Assembly: GCF_024502345.1 (NCBI RefSeq)
Contig: NZ_JALDNN010000001.1
Source: Escherichia coli
GTDB taxonomy: Bacteria; Pseudomonadota; Gammaproteobacteria; Enterobacterales; Enterobacteriaceae
Length of the DNA stretch: 64,000 nt
Direction: 5' to 3' (one strand)
The notes beneath the pieces are model-generated. The model saw only the letters and a program-made list of their open reading frames with translations. It was not told the origin of the DNA and searched no databases. Both the position numbers and the translations under genes were made by a program. Shown piece by piece: positions 27,140 through 64,000 of the stretch; the first letter of the stretch is position 1, and each line of letters starts with the position of its first letter.

Positions 27140-27180
27140 TCAGTGTATTGGTAGCTAAAAAGCCAGGGGCGGTAGCGTGT
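27140..27180 (+). promoter_or_regulatory. JUMPstart element with ops site (GGCGGTAGCGTG at 27168..27179) in the wza leader
   Basis: ggtagctaaaaagccaggggcggtagcgtg matches the JUMPstart/ops (RfaH recruitment) consensus; lies about 180 bp upstream of wza. Confidence 0.85.
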
Positions 27181-50521: not shown

Positions 50522-51517
50522 ATGAACGATAACGTTTTGCTCATAGGAGCTTCCGGATTCGTAGGAACCCGACTACTTGAAACGGCAATTGCTGACTTTA
50601 ATATCAAGAACCTGGACAAACAGCAGAGCCACTTTTATCCAGAAATCACACAGATTGGTGATGTTCGTGATCAACAGGCACTCGACCAGGCGTTAGCCGG
50701 TTTTGACACTGTTGTACTACTGGCAGCGGAACACCGCGATGACGTCAGCCCTACTTCTCTCTATTATGATGTCAACGTTCAGGGTACCCGCAATGTGCTG
50801 GCGGCCATGGAAAAAAATGGCGTTAAAAATATCATCTTTACCAGTTCCGTTGCTGTTTATGGTTTGAACAAACACAACCCTGACGAAAACCATCCACACG
50901 ATCCTTTCAACCACTACGGCAAAAGTAAGTGGCAGGCAGAGGAAGTGCTGCGTGAATGGTATAACAAAGCACCAACAGAACGTTCATTAACCATCATCCG
51001 TCCTACCGTTATCTTCGGTGAACGGAACCGCGGTAACGTCTATAACTTGCTGAAACAGATCGCTGGCGGCAAGTTTATGATGGTGGGCGCAGGGACTAAC
51101 TATAAGTCCATGGCTTATGTTGGAAACATTGTTGAGTTTATCAAGTACAAACTGAAGAATGTTGCCGCAGGTTATGAGGTTTATAACTACGTTGATAAGC
51201 CAGACCTGAACATGAACCAGTTGGTTGCTGAAGTTGAACAAAGCCTGAACAAAAAGATCCCTTCTATGCACTTGCCTTACCCACTAGGAATGCTGGGTGG
51301 ATATTGCTTTGATATCCTGAGCAAAATTACGGGCAAAAAATACGCTGTCAGCTCTGTGCGCGTGAAAAAATTTTGCGCAACAACACAGTTTGACGCAACG
51401 AAAGTGCATTCTTCAGGTTTTGTGGCACCGTATACGCTGTCGCAAGGTCTGGATCGAACTCTGCAGTATGAATTCGTCCATGCCAAAAAAGACGACATAA
51501 CGTTTGTTTCTGAGTAA
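50522..51517 (+). CDS. gnu: NAD-dependent epimerase of the Z3206 (Gnu/Gne) type; GlcNAc-P-P-Und 4-epimerase candidate
   Basis: 331-aa ORF with Rossmann motif LLIGASGFVGTRLL, between wcaM and galF where K-12 has no gene, as I recall. Confidence 0.7.
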   Translation: MNDNVLLIGASGFVGTRLLETAIADFNIKNLDKQQSHFYPEITQIGDVRDQQALDQALAGFDTVVLLAAEHRDDVSPTSLYYDVNVQGTRNVLAAMEKNGVKNIIFTSSVAVYGLNKHNPDENHPHDPFNHYGKSKWQAEEVLREWYNKAPTERSLTIIRPTVIFGERNRGNVYNLLKQIAGGKFMMVGAGTNYKSMAYVGNIVEFIKYKLKNVAAGYEVYNYVDKPDLNMNQLVAEVEQSLNKKIPSMHLPYPLGMLGGYCFDILSKITGKKYAVSSVRVKKFCATTQFDATKVHSSGFVAPYTLSQGLDRTLQYEFVHAKKDDITFVSE

Positions 51518-51759: not shown

Positions 51760-52653
51760 ATGACGAATTTAAAAGCAGTTATACCGGTAGCGGGTCTTGG
51801 GATGCATATGTTGCCTGCCACTAAGGCGATACCCAAAGAGATGCTACCGATCGTCGACAAGCCAATGATTCAGTACATTGTTGACGAGATTGTGGCTGCA
51901 GGGATCAAAGAAATCCTCCTGGTAACTCACGCGTCCAAGAACGCAGTCGAAAACCACTTCGACACCTCCTATGAATTAGAATCTCTCCTTGAACAGCGCG
52001 TGAAGCGTCAACTACTGGCGGAAGTGCAATCTATCTGTCCACCGGGAGTGACCATTATGAACGTGCGTCAGGGCGAACCTTTAGGTTTAGGCCACTCCAT
52101 TTTGTGTGCGCGACCTGCCATTGGTGACAACCCATTTGTCGTGGTACTGCCAGACGTAGTGATCGACGACGCCAGCGCCGACCCGCTGCGTTACAACCTT
52201 GCCGCTATGATTGCGCGCTTCAATGAAACGGGACGCAGCCAGGTGCTGGCAAAACGTATGCCGGGTGATCTCTCTGAATACTCCGTCATTCAGACCAAAG
52301 AACTGCTGGATCGCGAAGGTAAAGTCAGCCGCATTGTTGAATTCATCGAAAAACCGGATCAGCCACAAACGCTGGACTCAGACATCATGGCCGTTGGTCG
52401 CTATGTGCTTTCTGCCGATATTTGGCCGGAACTTGAACGCACTCAACCTGGTGCATGGGGGCGTATTCAGCTAACTGATGCCATTGCCGAACTGGCAAGA
52501 AAACAGTCCGTTGATGCAATGCTGATGACTGGTGACAGCTACGACTGCGGTAAAAAAATGGGGTATATGCAGGCGTTTGTGAAGTATGGACTACGCAACC
52601 TGAAAGAAGGGGCGAAGTTCCGTAAAGGTATTGACAAGCTGTTAAGCGAATAA
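51760..52653 (+). CDS. galF: UTP-glucose-1-phosphate uridylyltransferase-like regulatory subunit GalF
   Basis: 297-aa [46 protein letters not shown]. Confidence 0.96.
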
Positions 52654-52886
52654 TGAAAATCTGACCGAATGTAACGGTTGATAAGACAAATTATAACGGC
52701 AGTGAAGATTCCTGTGGGGAGTAATTTGTTGCGATTACCACTGTCGTTATTCAACTATAAGCATAAAAAAGTTAAATATAATTTGGGGATTTTAAGTATA
52801 TGGAAACGCCTTTGTCTACTGAATAAGTAAAGTATTAACTGTAAGAAAAGCGTGAATGGTGTTCCCTACATAATTTAAAGATATTC

Positions 52887-52925
52887 AGTCTACTGGTAGC
52901 TGTTAAGCCAGGGGCGGTAGCGTGG
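52887..52925 (+). promoter_or_regulatory. JUMPstart element with ops site (GGCGGTAGCGTG at 52913..52924) upstream of the O-antigen cluster
   Basis: cagtctactggtagctgttaagccaggggcggtagcgtg matches the 39-bp JUMPstart consensus closely. Confidence 0.9.
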
Positions 52926-52956
52926 ATAATTTTGAAAAAAAAGATTAGAGCATAAA

Positions 52957-54348
52957 ATGAATTTACTTAAAGGGACAATAATATATACATTGTCAAATTT
53001 GACAATTAAATTTGGTGCAGTTTTACTGCTTCCTATATTAACTCATTTACTTAATCCAGAAGAGTATGGGATGGTAGGATTGTATGTTACACTTACTTCC
53101 TTTCTTACAATAATTTTAGGGCTTGGTTTTTATACACCCTTAATGAAAACTCAGTCGGAGCAGAAAAGCAATATTGCAACTTCAAACCATGTAAATTTTT
53201 GTGCGATAATATTTCTTATCGCAGTTTATTTATTATTGCTTTTATTTCTTTACTTTATATTGAAGTCGTCTTTAGTTATTGATTTGTTGGGGGAGGTGAA
53301 ACTAGATAGCAAATTAATTTATTTGGCAGTTATTGTATCAATGTTTTCTGCAATTAATATTATTATGAACACGTCGTTTAGAATGGACGAGAATTATATA
53401 TTAGTTGCAATATTGTCAATTTTATCTTTTGTGTTATTTTATTCCTCTGCTATAATATTCATTAAACTGTTCAATTATGGAGGCCTTGGCTATATATATG
53501 GCAATTTATTAAGTTCAATAATCATTTTTTTTATAAGTTTCACTTGTTACTATAGAAAATTATCTATTGCATTTTCATGGCACAACGTGAAATTTTTGTG
53601 TAGGAATGGAATTCCAATGGTTTTTGTAGAGTTATCTGATAAAATAATTGAAGCCAGCGATAGATTTATTTTAGTCAGATATATTTCACTATCCTCTTTA
53701 GGCGTATATACACTAGCACTAACGGGATGTAAAGTATTAAACGTAGTTTTCAATTCTTATATTAGCGCTATCCTTCCCTCTATCTATAAAAGCGTTGAAA
53801 GCCGTGAAGATTCAAATTATATAAAAGTGAAGCTTGAGAATGCATACGTGCTTGTAGTGATGATGGTTTTTTTGGGACAGTTGATATCAAAAGAAATAAT
53901 TGACATAATTTTTCCTGCATCATATTCAAATTTATTTTTTGTATTTATATTAGCTTTGCCTGCAATATCTCTTCAATATTATTATTTCTTAGATTTCTAT
54001 TTTCATAGAAGTGAAGATAGCCGATTTATTTTATGTTTTACAATAGCAACCTCGATAATAAATATTATTCTAAACTTAATTTTTGTTCCCAAATATGGAG
54101 TTTATGCATCTCTTTTATCAACGTATATATCCTATTTAATCAGAACGCTAGTAGAAATAAAATTTATAGCGAGACGGTATAAATTGAAGTTTAGTGTGCT
54201 TAACGTCCTTATGGGAAGCTTTGTTCTGTATACTGTTCCTTTATTATATCATTATGGTTATTATACAGTGTTGTTGAGAGTAACTTTGTCAATTGTTTTA
54301 TTTATAGGTATTATTATGTTTTATAAAAAAAGTAGAATATTCAATTAA
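52957..54348 (+). CDS. wzx: O-antigen flippase Wzx
   Basis: 463-aa multi-TM ORF of the polysaccharide-transporter family; first gene after JUMPstart; low GC. Confidence 0.8.
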   Translation: MNLLKGTIIYTLSNLTIKFGAVLLLPILTHLLNPEEYGMVGLYVTLTSFLTIILGLGFYTPLMKTQSEQKSNIATSNHVNFCAIIFLIAVYLLLLLFLYFILKSSLVIDLLGEVKLDSKLIYLAVIVSMFSAINIIMNTSFRMDENYILVAILSILSFVLFYSSAIIFIKLFNYGGLGYIYGNLLSSIIIFFISFTCYYRKLSIAFSWHNVKFLCRNGIPMVFVELSDKIIEASDRFILVRYISLSSLGVYTLALTGCKVLNVVFNSYISAILPSIYKSVESREDSNYIKVKLENAYVLVVMMVFLGQLISKEIIDIIFPASYSNLFFVFILALPAISLQYYYFLDFYFHRSEDSRFILCFTIATSIINIILNLIFVPKYGVYASLLSTYISYLIRTLVEIKFIARRYKLKFSVLNVLMGSFVLYTVPLLYHYGYYTVLLRVTLSIVLFIGIIMFYKKSRIFN

Positions 54349-54361
54349 AAGTGAGTGCTAA

Positions 54362-55546
54362 GTGATCATGGTTAATGCTAAAAATTTTGTATTAATTATT
54401 TTTGATGTAATATGTCTTTTTTTTAATGTTTTTATTTATGTCCCACGTCTAATTATTGGTGTTTTAACAGTAGATAAAACATTGATTATTACATTTCCCT
54501 TGATGTTATCAGTGTTGGCATATAATTTTATTCCACCAGAAACATATGATCTTTACAGACATTATGAAAACTATCAAAATTTTTTGAATAATAATGAAGT
54601 AAGTTTTATCAGGGATTTTTTTCTTTATTTTTTATTTACCGTAGGGAGGTTTTTTGATTTAAATAATGGATTTATAGCATTTGTATCTTGTTATATCCTC
54701 TATTTTTATTGGTTAAAAATATTATACATTAACTTTGATTATAAAGCCAAGAAGAAAAATTTCCCGTTATACTTTCTTATATTTTTTATTACTCCACCTC
54801 TTGTTATATATACAGGCGTTCGATTTTCCACAGGGCTTATATTAACACTGTATGGGATTGTAAACTGGATTCAATTACGGAATGTAAAACTTGGTATAGT
54901 ATATATTATTTGCGGGTTAACAGCCCATTTTTCAATGGCATTGATTGCTTTAATATTTATTTTCACATCATATTTCAATAATATCTTTTCAAATAAATAT
55001 TTAAGGGTTGGGTTCGTATTTTCTGCATTACTTGTAATCTCATTTAATGAACAGTTAGTAAGGTTTTTGACAACAGTAATTGAGTTCATTAATCAGTTAT
55101 TTGATTGGAACTTTATTAGTATCGATACATATATTACTGGTAAATGGGGGCTGGAGAGGGCGCAGGAATTGAATTCAACCGGACAATTAGTATTAGGTAT
55201 ACGTAATTATGGTATGCTCTTTCTAATATTGCTATTTTGCCCACTAATATCTTTTAATAAAAATAAATATACGAACTTTTATTATGTAATGTGTGCTGTT
55301 ACAATATTAGTTTTCCCTTTTACAGCAGTATTTGATAGATATGGAACATTTTTAATTTTTTTTATTGTATACTATCTTAGTACTCTTCAGAAAAAAACTA
55401 ACATTGAAATAATATATTTTTTAACGTTGATTGTATATTTGATTTTCTTTAGAGCAATAGACATCAAAGATAATATTTCCGTATACACTGAAAGCTATAG
55501 TAATATATTGAATCTTTCTTTAATTAAAGTACTGTTAGGAATATAA
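54362..55546 (+). CDS. wzy: O-antigen polymerase Wzy (putative)
   Basis: 394-aa highly hydrophobic multi-TM ORF next to wzx; start may be ATG at 54368. Confidence 0.65.
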   Translation: MIMVNAKNFVLIIFDVICLFFNVFIYVPRLIIGVLTVDKTLIITFPLMLSVLAYNFIPPETYDLYRHYENYQNFLNNNEVSFIRDFFLYFLFTVGRFFDLNNGFIAFVSCYILYFYWLKILYINFDYKAKKKNFPLYFLIFFITPPLVIYTGVRFSTGLILTLYGIVNWIQLRNVKLGIVYIICGLTAHFSMALIALIFIFTSYFNNIFSNKYLRVGFVFSALLVISFNEQLVRFLTTVIEFINQLFDWNFISIDTYITGKWGLERAQELNSTGQLVLGIRNYGMLFLILLFCPLISFNKNKYTNFYYVMCAVTILVFPFTAVFDRYGTFLIFFIVYYLSTLQKKTNIEIIYFLTLIVYLIFFRAIDIKDNISVYTESYSNILNLSLIKVLLGI

Positions 55547-56526
55547 TGCGTAAATATGAAAATAATATTGTTATAAGTGTGATTATTCCAACATATAACA
55601 ATGATAAAACAATCATAGAGGCTATTCAATCTATAGTAAATGTTGAGATGCCTGTGAAATATGAGGTGCTAGTAATAGACGATGGTTCGGTAGATCAGAC
55701 ATCAAATTTAATTGCAGAATATATAAGTCAAAGAAAAGATAATACTATTAAATATTTTTATCAAAAAAACAGTGGTGTAAGCGCTGCGAGAAACGTGGGA
55801 ATAAAAAATGCATTAGGGAAATATGTTCTATTTTTAGACGCAGATGATACATATAGTGAACATGTGTTAAAAGAAATAGATGAAATATTAAGTACTAACA
55901 ATGATATATATGTGTTTTCATATGAAAAACTGAATAATAAAAAGGCTATAATATCAAATAAAAAAAATATTATAACTCATTATAATAGTAAATATGATTT
56001 TTTAAACTCCTATATCTCAGGTGAACTTTTCGGGTGCGTTAGTGTTTGCTCTTGCATTTTTAGTAAAGAATCATTAATTAGCAATAATATTTTTTACGAT
56101 AGTAAAATTGCTTATGGGGAAGATCAATGGTTTTTGATAAATGCTCTCAAGGTTTGCAATGATGTAGAGTTCAGATTAGAACTAAATTTACTGAATTATA
56201 CTTATAATACGGAGTCGGCGACTAATCGTTTCAACCTAAGACGTTTTGACGCGATTACAATGCTAGAAAGAATCAATCAAGAAGCATTTAAGGTTAATCA
56301 AGATATAATTAATGCAAGAATTAATAAAGAATTGGTAAATATAGCAACAATATATACGAAATTCAATTCGTTACAGAAATCAATAATGTTTGTTAATAAC
56401 GTTATACTCCCAAAAATAAAAACGGATAGTGACAAAAGACTATATATGTTCAAAGATATGGTTTTCACTAGATTACCATATTTATATATAATACTTTATA
56501 AACTCTATATTAAGCTATTTAAGTAA
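55546..56526 (+). CDS. Glycosyltransferase family 2
   Basis: 326-aa ORF, ISVIIPTYNN...DDGSVD...LDADD (GT-A, DXD). Confidence 0.8.
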   Translation: MRKYENNIVISVIIPTYNNDKTIIEAIQSIVNVEMPVKYEVLVIDDGSVDQTSNLIAEYISQRKDNTIKYFYQKNSGVSAARNVGIKNALGKYVLFLDADDTYSEHVLKEIDEILSTNNDIYVFSYEKLNNKKAIISNKKNIITHYNSKYDFLNSYISGELFGCVSVCSCIFSKESLISNNIFYDSKIAYGEDQWFLINALKVCNDVEFRLELNLLNYTYNTESATNRFNLRRFDAITMLERINQEAFKVNQDIINARINKELVNIATIYTKFNSLQKSIMFVNNVILPKIKTDSDKRLYMFKDMVFTRLPYLYIILYKLYIKLFK

Positions 56527-56532
56527 ACTAAT

Positions 56533-57714
56533 ATGAATATTCTTATAATTATTCCTAAGTTATGTAACGGTGGGATTGAAAAAATTGCATCAAACTTTTC
56601 TCAATACTTACCAGAAAGATATAATCAATTTGTATATTCAATCATGTCACAAGACTCTTCTTATGATTTTGCGGTAAAGCCCATTATATTAAATAAAAGT
56701 TTAGGTAAAACCTTTATTGGAAAATTGATTACATTTTTCTACAGGCTTCATTTGGCACGTAAAATTATTAGAGAAAATAACATAGATATATGCATTAGTT
56801 TTGGGGAGAGATGTAATATTATAAATATTCTATCTATGGGGAAAACAAAAAAAATCATTACTATACATAGTCAGCTATCTATTGAAAATAAAACAAAAGG
56901 ATTATATGGGAAAGTTACAACACTATTTTCAAAATTGCTTTATAAAAATGCGGATGCTACTGTAGCCGTATCAGAAATAGTGAAGAAGGATGCGTGCGGT
57001 TTATTAAATTTAGATGCGAATAATGTAGAGCTAATTTATAATGGACACGATATTGATTATATCAAAGATAAGTCTACTGATTATAAAGAATTTGATACAC
57101 CTGTGATCGACTTCGTGTCTGTAGGGCGAATTACATATGCTAAAGGGCATTATCATCTATTGAGAAGTCTTGCCATAGTAAAGGAGACGTATCCTAATGT
57201 AATACTATATATTGTTGGCACGTATGAAAAAGATAATTTAAAAAGCATAATTGATCATTTAATTGAGAAATACGATTTATATGATAATGTGATTTTTACC
57301 GGCTTTAGTGACAATCCATATCCTTACATAAAATCAGCAAAGGCTCTTATACTTAGTTCAATTTTTGAAGGTTTTCCAGGCGTTGTTATCGAGAGTATTG
57401 CGCTTGGAACTCCTGTCATAGCGACAGATTGTGGCGGTGCTTCAGAAGTTTTAAAAAGTCCAGATGCCAAAATAAAGAATAATACGGGAGATGTGGAAAT
57501 TACTAAATTAGGAGTACTGTTACCAAAATTCGATGGGATTTATGATATTAATTTGGATTTTTCGCCCACAGAAAAAAAGATGGCGCAAGTTATGAATGAT
57601 ATTATATCAGGGAAGCTGAAATTTAATGAAGACTTTTTAATTACAAAAGCAAACGAATATGATATAGATTCTATGATGAAAAAATATACGGACTTAATAG
57701 AGAAAATAAAATAA
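56533..57714 (+). CDS. Glycosyltransferase family 4 (GT-B)
   Basis: 393-aa ORF with C-terminal EGFPGVVIESIALGTPVIATDCGG motif. Confidence 0.8.
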   Translation: MNILIIIPKLCNGGIEKIASNFSQYLPERYNQFVYSIMSQDSSYDFAVKPIILNKSLGKTFIGKLITFFYRLHLARKIIRENNIDICISFGERCNIINILSMGKTKKIITIHSQLSIENKTKGLYGKVTTLFSKLLYKNADATVAVSEIVKKDACGLLNLDANNVELIYNGHDIDYIKDKSTDYKEFDTPVIDFVSVGRITYAKGHYHLLRSLAIVKETYPNVILYIVGTYEKDNLKSIIDHLIEKYDLYDNVIFTGFSDNPYPYIKSAKALILSSIFEGFPGVVIESIALGTPVIATDCGGASEVLKSPDAKIKNNTGDVEITKLGVLLPKFDGIYDINLDFSPTEKKMAQVMNDIISGKLKFNEDFLITKANEYDIDSMMKKYTDLIEKIK

Positions 57715-58685
57715 TGAAAGAAGCTACTACCTCATATAAATCAATTCATACTATATTAGATTATTTTGGTTGGTCTCATGAAGATTATTGGCATATCAAC
57801 TATAAAGTAAATTATGATTTTTCAAAATTTAATTATTATTGGGATTTGACAAAAAAGTATAATTGGTTTAGTGGACCTTTTGATCAAAATAATATTCCTT
57901 TATATCTTGGCACTGATTCAAAACTGCATTACTCGCCAATTTTTTTAGGGCATTATGCTCTTGGAGCATATCAAGAATATCTATTATCAAATGATAAAAA
58001 AGCATATGACGATTTTATAAGAATAGCGGATTGGTTTGTTGAAAATACAACGACATATAAAAAATGTTCTGGAATATGGATAAATACATACCCAATGTCA
58101 ACTTTTAACTTAAAAGGTAAATGGCAATCGTGTTTAGCCCAGGCAAAAGGTATATCTGTCCTATGTAGAGCTTATTATCTTACGCAAAATTTAAAATATT
58201 TGAAGGTAGCTCTTGACGCATTTGAATCTTTCAAAATATATAAAGAAGAAGGTGGAGTTAAGGTAAGGCATAAAAACGTATTCTTTTGGGAGGAATATCC
58301 AACTATAACCAATTCTATCGTATTGAATGGACATATTTTTGCAGTTTGGGCATTGTACGATTTATCTTTTGTATTAAAAGATAAGAACGAATTTAAGCAA
58401 CAATGGACGGATATTTACAGTTATTATAAAAAATCACTGATTATATTAAAAGAGAATTATAAGTTATGGGATACGCGCTATTGGACTAGATATGATATAT
58501 GGGATAAACATTTTAATGTTTCAAGTTTGTTTTATCATAATCTCCATATTAAACAATTCTATATATTGGCTGTTTTGGGAGATGATGATGATTTCAAGAA
58601 AATTGCTAATAAATGGGCTGGTAAATTAAAAAATCCGCTTTTCAGAATGTATGCGCTTATAAAGAAAGTAGTTTTTAGGTTATGA
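57714..58685 (+). CDS. D-glucuronyl C5-epimerase-like protein (C-terminal domain family), putative hexuronate epimerase
   Basis: 323-aa soluble ORF; AQAKGISVLCRAYYLT and FWEEYPTITNSIVLNGHIFAVWALYDL resemble, from memory, conserved blocks of the glucuronyl C5-epimerase C-terminal domain. Confidence 0.5.
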   Translation: MKEATTSYKSIHTILDYFGWSHEDYWHINYKVNYDFSKFNYYWDLTKKYNWFSGPFDQNNIPLYLGTDSKLHYSPIFLGHYALGAYQEYLLSNDKKAYDDFIRIADWFVENTTTYKKCSGIWINTYPMSTFNLKGKWQSCLAQAKGISVLCRAYYLTQNLKYLKVALDAFESFKIYKEEGGVKVRHKNVFFWEEYPTITNSIVLNGHIFAVWALYDLSFVLKDKNEFKQQWTDIYSYYKKSLIILKENYKLWDTRYWTRYDIWDKHFNVSSLFYHNLHIKQFYILAVLGDDDDFKKIANKWAGKLKNPLFRMYALIKKVVFRL

Positions 58686-59563
58686 TTATGAATGTTATTG
58701 ATAAAATTATTATGGGTTTGAAAAGTATATATTTAAGCTTTCTTTATACAATATATAATTTATTTCTTAATGAAAATAGATTCGAAGAGACAAATGAAGT
58801 ACATGTTGTTGTAAGTTTGACGTGTTTTCCTGGACGTATAAAAAAAGTATATCTTACTTTGGAGTCAATTATGGCTCAACAATATAATAACTTTAAAGTG
58901 GTATTGTACTTGTCTCATGAAGAGTTTCCAAAGGGTTTAGAGGATTTACCTCGTAGTTTAATACGATTACATAAAAGAGGTGTCGATATTAATTTTACGT
59001 GTGAAAATATTCGATCTTATAAGAAGTTACATTATGCGCTGAGTGATTTCCCGGAACTACCTGTAATAACAGCTGATGATGATGTCTTATATCCCTCGCG
59101 ATGGGTAAATGATTTTATGGAGTCACATAAGCTTTTTCATGATGATATATTATTTGCGAGGGGGCATCAGATAACATTTGACCGAAATGGAAATGTTAAA
59201 AAATATATCTCTTTCGGAAAACCAGCTGGATATTCAGCATCAAGTTTATATATTCCTACAGGAGTAAGTGGAATTCTATATCCGCCAGGATGTTTTTTTC
59301 AAGATGTGCAGAATAAAGATATTTTTATGAAGTTGGCACCTAACGCAGATGATATATGGTATAAAGTAATGACTTTGTTAAACGGTCGAAAATCCAGATT
59401 GATCTATAAAAAGCCAATTCATTATCCACCTATCCTTGGCACACAGAAGATCTCCTTGCGTAAACAAAACTTATCGAAACAACATTTAAATAATGATACA
59501 CAATTATTAAATTTAATTGATTATTATTCTATCGAATTAGCTGATTTTAAGAAAAAGGAATAG
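58682..59563 (+). CDS. Putative glycosyltransferase, family unassigned
   Basis: 293-aa ORF with N-terminal hydrophobic segment and DXD-like ITADDDV motif; 4-bp overlap with the upstream gene. Confidence 0.45.
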   Translation: MIMNVIDKIIMGLKSIYLSFLYTIYNLFLNENRFEETNEVHVVVSLTCFPGRIKKVYLTLESIMAQQYNNFKVVLYLSHEEFPKGLEDLPRSLIRLHKRGVDINFTCENIRSYKKLHYALSDFPELPVITADDDVLYPSRWVNDFMESHKLFHDDILFARGHQITFDRNGNVKKYISFGKPAGYSASSLYIPTGVSGILYPPGCFFQDVQNKDIFMKLAPNADDIWYKVMTLLNGRKSRLIYKKPIHYPPILGTQKISLRKQNLSKQHLNNDTQLLNLIDYYSIELADFKKKE

Positions 59564-59568
59564 CTCCT

Positions 59569-60309
59569 ATGGAATTAGTTTCAATTATAATGCCTTGTTT
59601 TAATAATGAAGCAACTATAAAAGAAAGTATTAACAGCGTACTATCTCAAAGTTATAAATGCTGGGAGTTAATTATTATCAATGACAACTCAACAGATGAT
59701 TCACAAAATATTATTAACGACTATGTGAATAGTGATGAAAGAATAAAACTGATTACTAATGAAAAAAATATCGGAGCTGGAGGTAGTAGAAATAAAGGAA
59801 TTGAAATTGCAAATGGAAGATTCATTGCTTTTTTAGATGCAGATGATGTTTGGTTGCCAGAAAAACTTGCAAAACAAATAAAGTTTATGAGAGATGGTAA
59901 TTATGCACTGACATATAGTTATTATCAAAAGTTTGATTCAACTGGATTGGGAGCGATCGTCCGGTCACCTGCTACAACAACCTATAGGAAATTGTTATAC
60001 AGTAATGTTATTGGATGTCTAACAGGAATGTATGATACTGATTTTTTGGGTAAATGCTATATGCCTTTAATTCGTAAACGACAAGATATGGGGCTTTGGT
60101 TGTCAATATTGAAAAAGTGTAATAAAGCATATTGCTTACCTGAAGTTTTGGCATATTATAGAATTGACTCAGGAATGACAAAAAATAAACTTGATGCGGC
60201 AAAATATCAGTGGCGATTTTATAGGGACGTAACTAAACTTAATTTGATTCAATCAAGTTGGTATTTTGTTTGGTATTCAGTTTTAGGTTTGGTAAAGTAC
60301 AAAAAATAA
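59569..60309 (+). CDS. Glycosyltransferase family 2
   Basis: 246-aa ORF, VSIIMPCFNN...NDNSTDDS...LDADD. Confidence 0.8.
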   Translation: MELVSIIMPCFNNEATIKESINSVLSQSYKCWELIIINDNSTDDSQNIINDYVNSDERIKLITNEKNIGAGGSRNKGIEIANGRFIAFLDADDVWLPEKLAKQIKFMRDGNYALTYSYYQKFDSTGLGAIVRSPATTTYRKLLYSNVIGCLTGMYDTDFLGKCYMPLIRKRQDMGLWLSILKKCNKAYCLPEVLAYYRIDSGMTKNKLDAAKYQWRFYRDVTKLNLIQSSWYFVWYSVLGLVKYKK

Positions 60310-60318
60310 TAAGGAGGA

Positions 60319-61332
60319 GTGATGACAATTTTAGTCACTGGTGGTGCTGGATATATTGGCAGTCACACTGTTATTGAATTACAGAAAAATGGTTTTGACG
60401 TGGTAATAGTAGATAATTTTTGTAATTCATCGCCATCGGTTTTAAAAAGAATTGAATTAATTACAGGGAAGGAAATTAAATGTTACGATATTGATCTTCT
60501 GGATTTTAATTCTTTGCAGAAGGTTTTTGTAACTAATAATATTAACTCTGTGATTCATTTTGCATCTTTAAAATCAGTTTCTGAATCACTAATCAAACCA
60601 ACTGAATATTATCATAATAATTTGAGTGGTTGCCTCAATGTCTTGAAAATAATGAAAGAACATAACGTGAATAATTTCATTTTCAGTTCTTCGGCAACTG
60701 TATATGGCAGTAATAACAACAATCCTGTTTCAGAATCTTCATCAGTCGGCACCGCAACAAATCCTTATGGAAAATCCAAGATTTTTTTAGAGCAAATATT
60801 GTCTGATTGCTGTAAATCAAATCCTAATTTAAATGTAACTTGCCTGAGGTATTTCAATCCGGTTGGTGCACATTCTTCAGGTTTGATAGGAGAATCTCCG
60901 AATGGTGTTCCTGCCAATTTAGTTCCATATTTAACTCAGGTTGCTTTAGGTAAATTGCCCGTATTACATATATATGGTAATGACTATGATACCAAGGATG
61001 GGACGGGAGTAAGAGATTTTATTCATGTTACGGATTTAGCTAATGGACACATAGCTGCGCTGAAAAAAATAAATGGTCATAATGGTTTTAAAGTTTATAA
61101 TCTTGGTACTGGGCGAGGTTATAGTGTGTTAGAAGTCGTTAGATGTTTTGAGGCTATTACAGGAAAAAGTATTCCAATCGAATTTTCGCCTCGCAGAGAA
61201 GGTGATATCGCTGAAAGTTGGGCAAATGTTTCCGCAGCAAATTATGAGTTAGAGTGGTTCGCTAAAAAGACATTAACTGATATGTTACGAGATGCATGGA
61301 AATGGCAAACGTTAAATCCAAATGGATTATAA
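60319..61332 (+). CDS. UDP-hexose 4-epimerase, GalE family (UDP-Glc/UDP-GlcNAc 4-epimerase)
   Basis: 337-aa ORF, MTILVTGGAGYIGSHTVIELQKNGFDVVIVDNFCNS, closely GalE-like; last gene of the O-antigen cluster. Confidence 0.85.
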   Translation: MMTILVTGGAGYIGSHTVIELQKNGFDVVIVDNFCNSSPSVLKRIELITGKEIKCYDIDLLDFNSLQKVFVTNNINSVIHFASLKSVSESLIKPTEYYHNNLSGCLNVLKIMKEHNVNNFIFSSSATVYGSNNNNPVSESSSVGTATNPYGKSKIFLEQILSDCCKSNPNLNVTCLRYFNPVGAHSSGLIGESPNGVPANLVPYLTQVALGKLPVLHIYGNDYDTKDGTGVRDFIHVTDLANGHIAALKKINGHNGFKVYNLGTGRGYSVLEVVRCFEAITGKSIPIEFSPRREGDIAESWANVSAANYELEWFAKKTLTDMLRDAWKWQTLNPNGL

Positions 61333-61417
61333 AGATATTTAATTTATATTAAACCTTGCTTATTTAAGATAATGTAAACCGCACCTTTGCGGTAACCCCC
61401 CCTGACAGGAGTAAACA

Positions 61418-62824
61418 ATGTCAAAGCAACAGATCGGCGTCGTCGGTATGGCAGTGATGGGGCGCAACCTTGCGCTCAACATCGAAAGCCGTGGTTATAC
61501 CGTCTCTATTTTCAACCGTTCCCGTGAAAAGACGGAAGAAGTGATTGCCGAAAATCCAGGCAAGAAACTGGTTCCTTACTATACGGTGAAAGAGTTTGTT
61601 GAATCTCTGGAAACGCCTCGTCGCATCCTGTTAATGGTGAAAGCAGGTGCAGGCACGGATGCTGCTATTGATTCTCTCAAGCCATACCTCGATAAAGGCG
61701 ACATCATCATTGATGGTGGTAACACCTTCTTCCAGGACACCATCCGTCGTAACCGTGAGCTTTCTGCAGAAGGCTTTAACTTCATTGGTACCGGTGTCTC
61801 CGGTGGTGAAGAAGGCGCGCTGAAAGGTCCTTCCATTATGCCTGGTGGGCAGAAAGAAGCCTATGAACTGGTTGCGCCGATCCTGACAAAAATCGCCGCA
61901 GTGGCTGAAGACAGCGAACCGTGCGTTACCTATATTGGTGCCGATGGCGCAGGTCACTATGTGAAGATGGTTCACAACGGTATTGAGTACGGCGATATGC
62001 AGCTGATTGCTGAAGCCTATTCTCTGCTTAAAGGTGGTCTGAACCTCACCAACGAAGAACTGGCGCAGACCTTTACCGAGTGGAATAACGGTGAACTGAG
62101 CAGCTACCTGATCGACATTACCAAAGACATCTTCACTAAAAAAGATGAAGACGGTAACTACTTGGTTGATGTGATCCTGGATGAAGCGGCAAACAAAGGT
62201 ACGGGCAAATGGACCAGCCAGAGCGCACTGGATCTCGGCGAACCGCTGTCGCTGATTACCGAGTCTGTGTTTGCACGATACATCTCTTCTCTGAAAGATC
62301 AGCGCGTTGCTGCGTCTAAAGTTCTCTCTGGCCCACAAGCGCAGCTAGCTGGCGACAAGGCTGAGTTCATCGAAAAAGTTCGCCGTGCACTGTATCTGGG
62401 CAAAATCGTTTCTTACGCTCAGGGGTTCTCTCAACTGCGTGCGGCGTCTGAAGAGTACAACTGGGATCTGAACTACGGCGAAATCGCGAAGATTTTCCGT
62501 GCTGGCTGCATCATCCGTGCGCAGTTCCTGCAGAAAATCACCGATGCTTATGCCGAAAATCCGCAAATCGCTAATCTGCTGCTGGCTCCGTACTTCAAGC
62601 AAATTGCCGATGACTACCAGCAGGCGCTGCGTGATGTCGTTGCTTATGCAGTACAGAACGGTATCCCTGTTCCTACCTTCGCTGCTGCGGTTGCCTATTA
62701 CGACAGCTACCGCGCCGCTGTTCTGCCTGCGAACCTGATCCAGGCACAGCGTGACTATTTCGGTGCGCATACTTATAAGCGCATTGATAAAGAAGGTGTG
62801 TTCCATACCGAATGGCTGGATTAA
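61418..62824 (+). CDS. gnd: 6-phosphogluconate dehydrogenase (decarboxylating)
   Basis: 468-aa [33 protein letters not shown]. Confidence 0.97.
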
Positions 62825-63072: not shown

Positions 63073-64000
63073 ATGAAAATAACAATTTCAGGAACAGGTT
63101 ATGTTGGTCTTTCAAATGGTATTCTGATTGCGCAAAATCACGAAGTGGTTGCACTGGATATCGTTCAGGCCAAAGTGGACATGCTTAACAAGAAGCAGTC
63201 ACCGATTGTTGATAAGGAGATTGAAGAGTATCTGGCGACTAAAGATCTCAATTTCCGCGCTACGACAGATAAGTATGACGCGTATAAAAATGCCGATTAC
63301 GTTATTATTGCCACGCCTACCGATTATGACCCGAAAACAAATTATTTTAATACCTCAAGCGTGGAAGCGGTCATTCGCGATGTGACAGAAATTAATCCCA
63401 ACGCGGTAATGGTGATTAAATCTACAATTCCGGTAGGTTTCACCAAATCAATTAAAGAACGTCTGGGTATCGATAATCTTATTTTCTCTCCGGAATTTCT
63501 CCGTGAAGGTAAAGCCCTTTACGATAATCTCCATCCTTCACGTATTGTCATTGGTGAGCGTTCAGAACGCGCAGAACGTTTTGCTGCGTTGTTACAGGAA
63601 GGCGCGATTAAGCAAAATATCCCGACCCTGTTTACCGACTCCACTGAAGCAGAAGCGATTAAACTTTTCGCTAATACCTATCTGGCGATGCGCGTAGCAT
63701 ACTTTAATGAACTGGATAGCTATGCAGAAAGTTTAGGTCTGAATACTCGCCAGATTATCGAAGGCGTTTGTCTCGATCCGCGTATTGGCAACCATTACAA
63801 CAATCCGTCGTTTGGATATGGTGGTTATTGTCTGCCGAAAGATACCAAGCAGTTACTGGCGAACTACCAGTCTGTGCCGAATAACCTGATTTCGGCAATT
63901 GTCGATGCTAACCGCACACGTAAAGACTTTATTGCCGATGCCATTTTGTCACGCAAACCGCAAGTGGTGGGTATTTATCGTCTGATTATGAAGAGCGGTT
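63073..64000 (+). CDS. ugd: UDP-glucose 6-dehydrogenase, 5' part (continues beyond window)
   Basis: ATG at 63073; translation [59 protein letters not shown]...; not in the ORF track because no stop lies within the window. Confidence 0.93.

Follow-up and report, generated by a model that had tools for sequence, protein, structure and literature searches.

The window analyzed here, a 64,000-nucleotide stretch of Escherichia coli DNA, carries an O-antigen gene cluster; the gene order of the region is galF-cluster-gnd-ugd-wzzB-his. This is the E. coli O112ab O-antigen cluster: along 8501 bp its nucleotide sequence is 100% identical to that of O112ab:H8 and of six other genomes, and PGAP labels its wzx and wzy genes “O112ab family”. 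The features of the cluster are as follows, with coordinates being those of the window.

50522..51517, + strand: GlcNAc-PP-undecaprenol 4-epimerase, a lipid-linked-sugar epimerase by annotation only (annotation; SDR epimerase-type matches)
52913..52924, + strand: ops-like motif GGCGGTAGCGTG, 33 bp upstream of wzx
52957..54348, + strand: wzx, O112ab flippase (annotation)
54362..55546, + strand: wzy, O112ab polymerase (annotation; PGAP start 54368)
55546..56526, + strand: GT2 glycosyltransferase (annotation and profile matches)
56533..57714, + strand: GT4 glycosyltransferase, PglJ-like; its stop codon shares one base with the gae start
57714..58685, + strand: gae, 323-aa D-glucuronyl C5-epimerase family protein (ORF, PF06662, GLCE structures, Foldseek, RefSeq WP_032261840.1)
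58682..59563, + strand: predicted GT-A glycosyltransferase of 293 aa, related to KfiA and to the GlcNAc-transferase of heparosan synthase, the fourth glycosyltransferase of the cluster (PGAP start 58688, “hypothetical protein”)
59569..60309, + strand: GT2 glycosyltransferase, TuaG-like at 268 bits, which is under the curated cutoff (annotation and profile match)
60319..61332, + strand: GalE-type UDP-hexose 4-epimerase (annotation and profile match; PGAP start 60322)
61418..62824: gnd, with ugd downstream
63073..64000, + strand: ugd (UDP-glucose 6-dehydrogenase), the 5' 309 codons, truncated by the end of the window (annotation)

The initial annotation placed the epimerase-like gene among glycosyltransferases, with ugd just downstream of gnd, and this arrangement holds. 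The gae ORF begins with an ATG and is tightly packed between its neighbors: it overlaps the preceding GT4 gene by 1 nt, and it overlaps the following gene by 4 nt or is separated from it by 2 nt. The presence of four glycosyltransferases plus WecA agrees in number with the published pentasaccharide. No sulfotransferase genes were found between galF and gnd.

The 323-aa product, Gae, first drew attention for sequence blocks reminiscent of the C-terminal domain of D-glucuronyl C5-epimerases. All of these blocks are present in the protein: AQAKGISVLCRAYYLT at residues 142-157, WEEYPT at 192-197, VLNGHIF at 203-209, and LYDL at 214-217. A search against the corresponding domain family, Pfam PF06662 (C5-epim_C), gave a strong match (E=1.8e-35, 122.6 bits) that covers residues 129-302 of Gae and positions 17-187 of the 188 in the model. 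Using phmmer against PDB sequences, Gae matches zebrafish Glce (4pw2; E=2.5e-23) and human GLCE (6hzz; E=2.1e-22), i.e., with E in the region of 1e-23; the homology spans Gae residues 101-307 and begins near position ~405 of the human enzyme. At the level of sequence, this resemblance lies far beyond chance. NCBIfam returned zero matches to Gae even at E<=1, meaning that the protein is without a curated equivalog model; the family assignment was decided by the Pfam and PDB searches. A homologue search with Gae gave a best match that is 59% identical, and its own cluster was absent from the output; the same search with the 293-aa neighbor returned its own 100% match, and we take the missing self-match of Gae to be a database or indexing quirk.

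The predicted structure leads to the same family. An AF2 model of Gae (pLDDT 93.2, pTM 0.92) consists of an alpha-domain with short strands only. In a Foldseek search of the PDB with this model, the top eight matches are all GLCE chains, with E-values from 5e-11 to 4e-10 (6i01, 6hzz, and 4pw2 are among the GLCE matches). The model superposes best on GLCE, with an rmsd of 2.1-2.2 Å and 30-32% identity over ~220 columns. The runner-up fold class has E-values of at least 4.6e-4, ~10^6-fold worse than GLCE. As described in PMC13308652, the catalytic residues of human GLCE are E499, Y500, N510, Y560, and Y578, with their roles set out in the account given by PMC12834895. These residues align with E194, Y195, N205, Y260, and Y274 of Gae, and in our alignment all five are invariant across 17 bacterial sequences. 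The domain and the codons concerned are located as follows.

58098..58619, + strand: C5-epim_C domain region, residues 129-302 (PF06662 match)
58293..58298, + strand: codons for E194-Y195, corresponding to human GLCE E499-Y500, the catalytic acid and Tyr (alignment, invariance, PMC13308652)
58326..58328, + strand: codon for N205, corresponding to human N510 (alignment, invariance, PMC13308652)
58491..58493, + strand: codon for Y260, corresponding to human Y560 (alignment, invariance, PMC13308652)
58533..58535, + strand: codon for Y274, corresponding to human Y578, the general base (alignment, invariance, PMC13308652, PMC12834895)

In the Y578 column of the structural comparison, the 6i01 chain has F, while 6hzz and Gae both have Y.

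The ORF at 57714-58685 encodes a bacterial member of the GLCE family and is the gae gene of E. coli O112ab; we consider its enzyme identity and its role as a C5-epimerase for the O112ab O-antigen very probable. Gae is a member of the PF06662 family, not an orthologue of the heparan-sulfate epimerase proper.

L-Iduronic acid (L-IdoA) is a source of conformational flexibility in heparin and dermatan sulfate, and is very rare in bacteria. Its presence in the O112ab O-antigen was reportedly described by Perepelov in 2008. The initial suggestion that the O-unit contains an epimerized hexuronic acid such as L-IdoA is thus supported by published O112ab chemistry, in which the O-polysaccharide is described as containing L-IdoA, the sole E. 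coli O antigen of this kind (PMC3068255, PMC7685785). The two outcomes that the initial annotation named as refuting, a missing profile or structural match to C5-epimerases and an O-polysaccharide devoid of hexuronic acid, were therefore both decided in its favor. The gene, too, is known. A 2011 survey lists the identical 323-aa protein as a candidate for a C5-epimerase, with GI 187880578 / 187880569 as the entries for O112ab and Shigella boydii type 15, and a 2019 review names it Gae (PMC3068255, PMC7685785); RefSeq WP_032261840.1 is annotated as “D-glucuronyl C5-epimerase family protein”. The published gae of E. coli O112ab and S. boydii type 15 is the same gene as the one described here, with no difference. 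The assignment of an iduronic acid epimerase is therefore right, yet it is not new: the chemistry dates from 2008, the candidate gene from 2008-2011, and both a name and a RefSeq annotation exist.

Comparison with known epimerases shows which features of Gae are shared and which are not. Gae and animal GLCE are homologous throughout the catalytic (alpha/alpha)-barrel domain, where the E, Y, N, Y, and Y residues are conserved, and Gae is predicted to perform the same chemistry, converting GlcA to L-IdoA. However, animal GLCE is considerably larger (617 aa versus 323 aa), and its type-II membrane anchor, beta-hairpin dimerization domain, and beta-sandwich domain are all absent from Gae. Animal GLCE is located in the Golgi lumen, whereas Gae appears to be cytoplasmic. 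The animal enzyme acts on N-sulfated heparosan of at least six sugars, which cannot be the substrate of Gae; instead, Gae would use either UDP-GlcA or an O-unit intermediate that carries no sulfate.

The Bermanella marisrubri protein RED65_08024 (RED-C5epi) is, like Gae, a bacterial PF06662 protein from the 2011 survey, and is the only bacterial GLCE homologue whose activity is presented as biochemically demonstrated in the accounts of PMC13308652 and PMC12834895 (Raedts 2013). As described in PMC12834895, it epimerizes glycan-borne GlcA at C5, the substrates tried there being heparosan-type polymers. At 448 aa, RED-C5epi is longer than Gae and is much nearer to human GLCE, with a BLAST E-value of 2e-76 versus 1e-23 for the O112ab protein in the 2011 survey. 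In contrast to RED-C5epi, the natural product is known for Gae. A third enzyme, Agl32 of Halobacterium salinarum, is described in PMC13308652 as converting GlcA to L-IdoA within a short, lipid-carried glycan that is assembled at the cytoplasmic face, before translocation, and as consisting of an alpha-helical domain only. According to the same account, the catalytic residues of GLCE are missing from Agl32, which presumably has another active site, whereas Gae keeps all of them. By analogy, Agl32 would be the best functional counterpart of the mechanism that we propose for Gae.

In the proposed mechanism, Ugd would supply UDP-GlcA, and an inverting GT2 enzyme, working at the cytoplasmic face of the membrane, would extend the Und-PP-linked oligosaccharide by a beta-D-GlcA residue. 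Gae would then epimerize the lipid-linked beta-D-GlcA to alpha-L-IdoA at the same face. By homology to the human enzyme, Tyr274 (Y578) would take the C5 proton from D-GlcA to give an enolate, and Glu194 (E499) would reprotonate the opposite face of the enolate to give L-IdoA, with Y195, N205, and Y260 rounding out the active site. GLCE catalysis is reversible. A regular IdoA-containing polymer therefore requires a selective downstream step, which would lock in the IdoA form before Wzy-dependent polymerization in the periplasm; it could be carried out by the neighboring KfiA-like transferase, by Wzx, or by Wzy.

The main alternative is that Gae is a cytoplasmic nucleotide-sugar epimerase that converts UDP-alpha-D-GlcA to UDP-beta-L-IdoA, with a dedicated IdoA-transferase of the cluster using this donor. 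This is the route drawn in the main review of E. coli O antigens (Liu 2019), although the review itself says that it drew this pathway without an experimental basis (PMC7685785). The alternative gains from the apparently soluble, cytoplasmic nature of Gae and from the view that all other E. coli O-unit sugars are delivered as nucleotide sugars. Because Gae has no beta-hairpin and beta-sandwich domains, it must bind a much smaller substrate than animal GLCE does, and that substrate could equally be a nucleotide sugar. By contrast, the characterized family members described in PMC13308652 and PMC12834895 (animal GLCE, a snail enzyme, and Bermanella RED-C5epi) take as substrate GlcA that is part of a glycan chain, and none of the PF06662 members covered in those accounts acts on a nucleotide sugar. 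In addition, Agl32, the archaeal functional analogue, acts on a lipid-linked tetrasaccharide before membrane crossing, as described in PMC13308652, and the conserved position of gae, tightly flanked by two glycosyltransferase genes, suits an assembly-line step slightly better, albeit as a weak argument. The kinship of the downstream neighbor to heparosan-type transferases and the synteny of the GT4-gae-KfiA-like trio in other bacteria, both described below, also count toward the lipid-linked level. On balance, we regard the nucleotide-sugar route as rather unlikely and prefer, with some confidence, action of Gae on the GlcA residue of the Und-PP-linked O-unit.

Gae could instead act after export, on GlcA of the polymerized O-antigen in the periplasm, in the manner of the alginate epimerase AlgG or of animal GLCE in the Golgi lumen. 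The C5-epimerases of alginate act on the finished polymer, which counts in favor of such a scheme. Animal GLCE likewise works at the polymer level, as described in PMC13308652 and PMC12834895, and many prokaryotic homologues carry predicted signal peptides (Raedts 2011). However, neither a signal peptide nor a TM segment was found in Gae: its N-terminus, MKEATTSYKSIHTILDYFGW, has no hydrophobic h-region, and its maximum 19-residue Kyte-Doolittle hydropathy is 1.5, as compared with 2.7-3.2 for Wzx and Wzy. Moreover, this N-terminus is invariant within the Gae clade and likewise non-hydrophobic. Since Gae has no export signal and Wzy polymerization is periplasmic, action on the polymer is very improbable, and we reject it. 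The initial annotation had offered the polymer and lipid-linked levels as the possible sites of GlcA-to-IdoA conversion; the former falls away, and the latter stays live alongside UDP-GlcA. Finally, we give next to no credence to Gae being inactive as an epimerase, i.e., being a remnant or an (alpha/alpha)-barrel enzyme akin to lyases or hydrolases, with IdoA coming from another route: the fold is common to cellobiose 2-epimerases, GH76, GH105, and polysaccharide lyases, all of which are weaker Foldseek matches to Gae (E>=5e-4), but a non-epimerase barrel enzyme is rejected on the conserved, invariant catalytic residues and the ~10^6-fold gap in E-value, the cluster holds no other candidate for an IdoA-making enzyme, and 10 full-length O112ab clusters all carry an intact ORF with 99-100% conservation.

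If Gae acts on the lipid-linked O-unit as we favor, this would be the first bacterial lipid-linked uronic acid C5-epimerization by a GLCE homologue, and Gae would be a compact enzyme for introducing IdoA into glycans that are short and unsulfated. A bacterial enzyme this small, acting on a short substrate that carries no sulfate, would aid the chemoenzymatic synthesis of IdoA-containing glycans, and establishing the level at which Gae acts would confirm or correct the pathway in the standard review.

The 293-aa ORF immediately downstream of gae has no match in Pfam or NCBIfam. A profile of its family matches PmHS2 (E=1.2e-8) and KfiA (E=3.3e-8) in the PDB, with the next match at 0.011. Its AF2 model (pLDDT 93.3) has KfiA as the best Foldseek match (E=1.1e-7), with PmHS2 also among the top matches and generic GT-A folds close behind (E~3e-6). 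The protein is thus a predicted glycosyltransferase with KfiA and heparosan synthase as its relatives, with a modest margin over other GT-A folds. It shares with KfiA and PmHS2 the GT-A fold and the DDD motif (residues 132-134, invariant), but its identity to them in structural alignments is just 14-16%. In heparosan, KfiA and PmHS2, to which the 293-aa protein is related, attach alpha-GlcNAc at O4 of GlcA. By sequence kinship, we infer that the protein would be a retaining enzyme that joins HexNAc to a uronic acid in alpha-1,4 linkage, with a HexNAc-(1->4)-IdoA link predicted in the O112ab repeat.

The KfiA-like transferase is not an obligate partner of a C5-epimerase: we rejected this possibility because no PF06662 neighbor is present at the loci of three distant homologues (33-35% identity), from Clostridium, Vibrio astriarenae, and Xaviernesmea. 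It is thus only in the close clade that the two genes go together. Within that clade, the trio of GT4, gae, and KfiA-like genes is syntenic, at 45-50% identity, in Aeromonas, in Vibrio parahaemolyticus, and in another enterobacterial-type locus. We see an even chance that Gae is a minimal, single-domain GLCE-type epimerase that acts on a short Und-PP-linked oligosaccharide at the cytoplasmic membrane face, rather than the maker of UDP-IdoA assumed in the E. coli O-antigen literature, and that it works jointly with the KfiA-like transferase as part of a mobile “mini-heparin” module (GT4, epimerase, and KfiA-like transferase) found in E. coli O112ab, S. boydii 15, Aeromonas, Vibrio, and probably Providencia.

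The gae gene is an ORF on the + strand at 57714-58685 that starts with ATG and encodes a 323-aa protein, Gae. All sequence blocks quoted in the initial annotation lie within it, at residues 142-157, 192-197, 203-209, and 214-217. From those blocks, the product had been read as resembling D-glucuronyl C5-epimerases in their C-terminal domain, and an epimerised hexuronic acid such as L-iduronic acid (IdoA) had been suggested for the O antigen. This is correct but already published, so the central claim is not new. A review of L-IdoA in prokaryotes by Raedts, Kengen, and van der Oost (2011, PMC3068255) attributes to Perepelov 2008 and Liu 2008 an identical L-IdoA-containing pentasaccharide common to Escherichia coli O112ab and Shigella boydii type 15; its candidate pfam06662 C5-epimerases include “Escherichia coli O112ab, 323 aa, GI 187880578” and an S. 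boydii 15 protein. According to Liu et al. (2019, PMC7685785), L-IdoA occurs among E. coli O antigens in O112ab only; the authors name the enzyme “Gae, C5-epimerase” and propose a UDP-L-IdoA pathway that is, in their words, “not based on experimental data”. The residual question is a modest one: the substrate level at which Gae acts and the role of the KfiA-like glycosyltransferase (GT) encoded next to it.

The gene order follows RefSeq annotation, with which NCBIfam scans of the cluster genes agree, and places gae among GT genes and ugd downstream of gnd, as initially described.

Genes in and around the O112ab cluster
Upstream: wcaL and wcaM, colanic acid genes
50522-51517 (+): GlcNAc-PP-undecaprenol 4-epimerase, SDR-type, upstream of galF; specificity from annotation only
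51760-52653: galF
52957-54348: wzx, O112ab family
54362-55546: wzy, O112ab family
55546-56526: GT2
56533-57714: GT4, PglJ-like
57714-58685 (+): gae, D-glucuronyl C5-epimerase family protein
58682-59563 (+): 293-aa ORF, “hypothetical protein” in RefSeq, KfiA-like GT
59569-60309: GT2, TuaG-like
60319-61332: galE
61418-62824: gnd
63073 onward: ugd; the translation from 63073 is the Ugd N-terminus, and the window ends inside the gene

In the full RefSeq record, ugd is followed by wzzB and hisIE. The annotated 4-epimerase at 50522-51517 implies that the O-unit is initiated with GalNAc. The GT4 stop codon and the gae start codon share one base, and the 293-aa ORF starts either at 58682, 4 nt before the gae stop, or at the PGAP start, 58688, 2 nt after it. 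G+C content is 26-32 % over ~8.5 kb around gae (52500-61000), against 43-55 % on either side, where the colanic-acid genes, galF, and gnd lie. Such a drop typifies enterobacterial O-antigen clusters and is consistent with horizontal acquisition. The ops-like motif GGCGGTAGCGTG (+ strand) occurs twice in the window (chance expectation 0.1), at 27168-27179 and at 52913-52924; the latter copy lies in the galF-wzx gap, 33 bp upstream of wzx, a position expected for a JUMPstart/RfaH-dependent operon.

Family, fold, and catalytic residues all support the reading of Gae as a C5-epimerase, in line with the published L-IdoA. The Pfam C5-epim_C model (PF06662) matches residues 129-302 over almost its whole length (E=1.8e-35); an NCBIfam scan of Gae found no covering model. 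A phmmer search of PDB sequences returned only three significant sequences, each a D-glucuronyl C5-epimerase (GLCE), aligned to Gae residues 101-307: zebrafish 4pw2 (E=2.5e-23) and human 6hzz and 6i01 (E~2e-22 to 7e-22). An AlphaFold2 model built from an alignment of 17 bacterial sequences (pLDDT 93.2, pTM 0.92) superposes on GLCE, which accounts for all of the best eight Foldseek matches in the PDB (E 5e-11 to 4e-10, rmsd 2.1-2.2 Å, 30-32 % identity); a second group, starting at E=4.6e-4, comprises cellobiose 2-epimerases and other (alpha/alpha)-barrels. The catalytic residues of human GLCE are given as E499, Y500, N510, Y560, and Y578 (Debarnot 2019, as quoted in PMC13308652), with Y578 as base and E499 as acid (PMC12834895). 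In the phmmer alignment, the 6hzz chain is offset by 90 from human numbering, as confirmed at chain position 488, which is Y in 6hzz but F in 6i01. With this offset, the five residues correspond to Gae E194, Y195, N205, Y260, and Y274, which show no variation among the 17 bacterial sequences. Unlike animal GLCE, which also carries beta-hairpin and beta-sandwich domains (PMC13308652), Gae consists of the catalytic alpha-domain alone: homology begins at approximately human residue 405, and the two beta domains are therefore absent. Neither the Pfam match nor the alignment to GLCE sequences extends into residues 1-~72 (57714-57930). Within these N-terminal ~70 residues, E3, A4, T5, S7, Y8, Y17, D24-H27, Y30, Y41, K48, D57, L63, Y64, and G66 are invariant in the bacterial clade, and the segment may be a clade-specific element that binds substrate or a partner.

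The 293-aa ORF alone matches nothing in Pfam or NCBIfam. A profile of 41 homologues searched against the PDB matches the C-terminal domain of PmHS2, the Pasteurella heparosan synthase (residues 294-525, E=1.2e-8), and E. coli K5 KfiA (E=3.3e-8), followed by SpsA (0.011). PF00535 is found in 13 of the 41 homologues and GT64 in one, and a DDD at 132-134 is invariant. Foldseek ranks KfiA first for the AlphaFold2 model (pLDDT 93.3; E=1.1e-7), then PmHS2, with generic GT-A folds not far behind; one matched entry has polysaccharide bound in its GlcNAc-T site. Judging from its relatives, the ORF is a candidate alpha-HexNAc transferase with a uronic acid as acceptor. The published pentasaccharide requires WecA and four GTs, and the cluster has exactly four if the 293-aa ORF is counted; family profile and predicted fold suggest that it is probably the missing fourth.

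Relatives of GT4, Gae, and the 293-aa ORF are syntenic in four loci from other genomes (L002-L005), with 45-59 % protein identity to the E. coli proteins (tblastn for L002-L004, homologue tables for L005) and ugd in each locus. Identities for the three proteins, respectively, are 45 %, 50 %, and 46 % in Aeromonas dhakensis (L002) and 46 %, 48 %, and 46 % in Vibrio parahaemolyticus (L003, L004); in L005, an enterobacterial-type gnd-ugd-his locus, they are 59 % for Gae and 55 % for the 293-aa ORF. The trio has GT2 genes and ugd nearby (L002:5318-13845, L003:4046-18676, L005:405-9556), and is preceded by wzx and wzy in L002-L004; the L005 sequence ends just upstream of GT4. Polysaccharides of these organisms may likewise contain IdoA. 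The homologue tables hold eight further Gae/GT pairs in which both members come from contigs of identical length, suggesting that each pair lies on one contig. No epimerase neighbour was found for more distant relatives of the 293-aa ORF at the loci examined.

Wzy-dependent polymerisation is periplasmic, and Gae is predicted to be cytoplasmic: hydropathy indicates no signal peptide or TM segment (19-residue maximum 1.5, versus 2.7-3.2 for Wzx and Wzy of the same cluster). Epimerisation at the polymer level is therefore unlikely, which leaves UDP-glucuronic acid (UDP-GlcA), whose supply is provided for by the adjoining ugd, or a GlcA residue of the O-unit linked to undecaprenyl pyrophosphate (Und-PP). 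We infer that the Und-PP-linked residue is the somewhat likelier substrate, for four reasons. First, characterised PF06662 enzymes use GlcA embedded in a glycan (PMC13308652, PMC12834895). Second, archaeal Agl32, a functional analogue in this respect, epimerises GlcA of a lipid-linked tetrasaccharide before translocation and requires the flanking sugars (PMC13308652). Third, gae has a GT gene on either side of it, as part of a conserved trio. Fourth, the same locus has a gene annotated as a lipid-linked-sugar epimerase (50522-51517). These points make action on UDP-GlcA the less likely option but are not decisive, and the absence of GLCE's extra beta domains fits a nucleotide-sugar substrate equally well.

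E. coli O112ab:H8 and six other complete genomes match the region 52900-61400 at 100 % identity across its full length of 8501 bp. Among 5426 complete E. coli genomes, just 13 contain any part of it. In three of these (B19374, 162.2, and OY757949), the locus has a ~6.8-kb deletion (52963-59726) that begins 6 nt into wzx and ends within the last GT2 gene, so that gae, wzx, wzy, and three GTs are missing; at the junction, the two flanks share an overlap of 18 bp (L009:9044-9061, in a comparison locus). These genomes presumably represent rough derivatives. In E. coli strain S43 (NZ_CP010237.1:3700286-3708378), the match to the cluster is broken into four pieces that together span 95 % of the query, pointing to an insertion or a rearrangement within the cluster.
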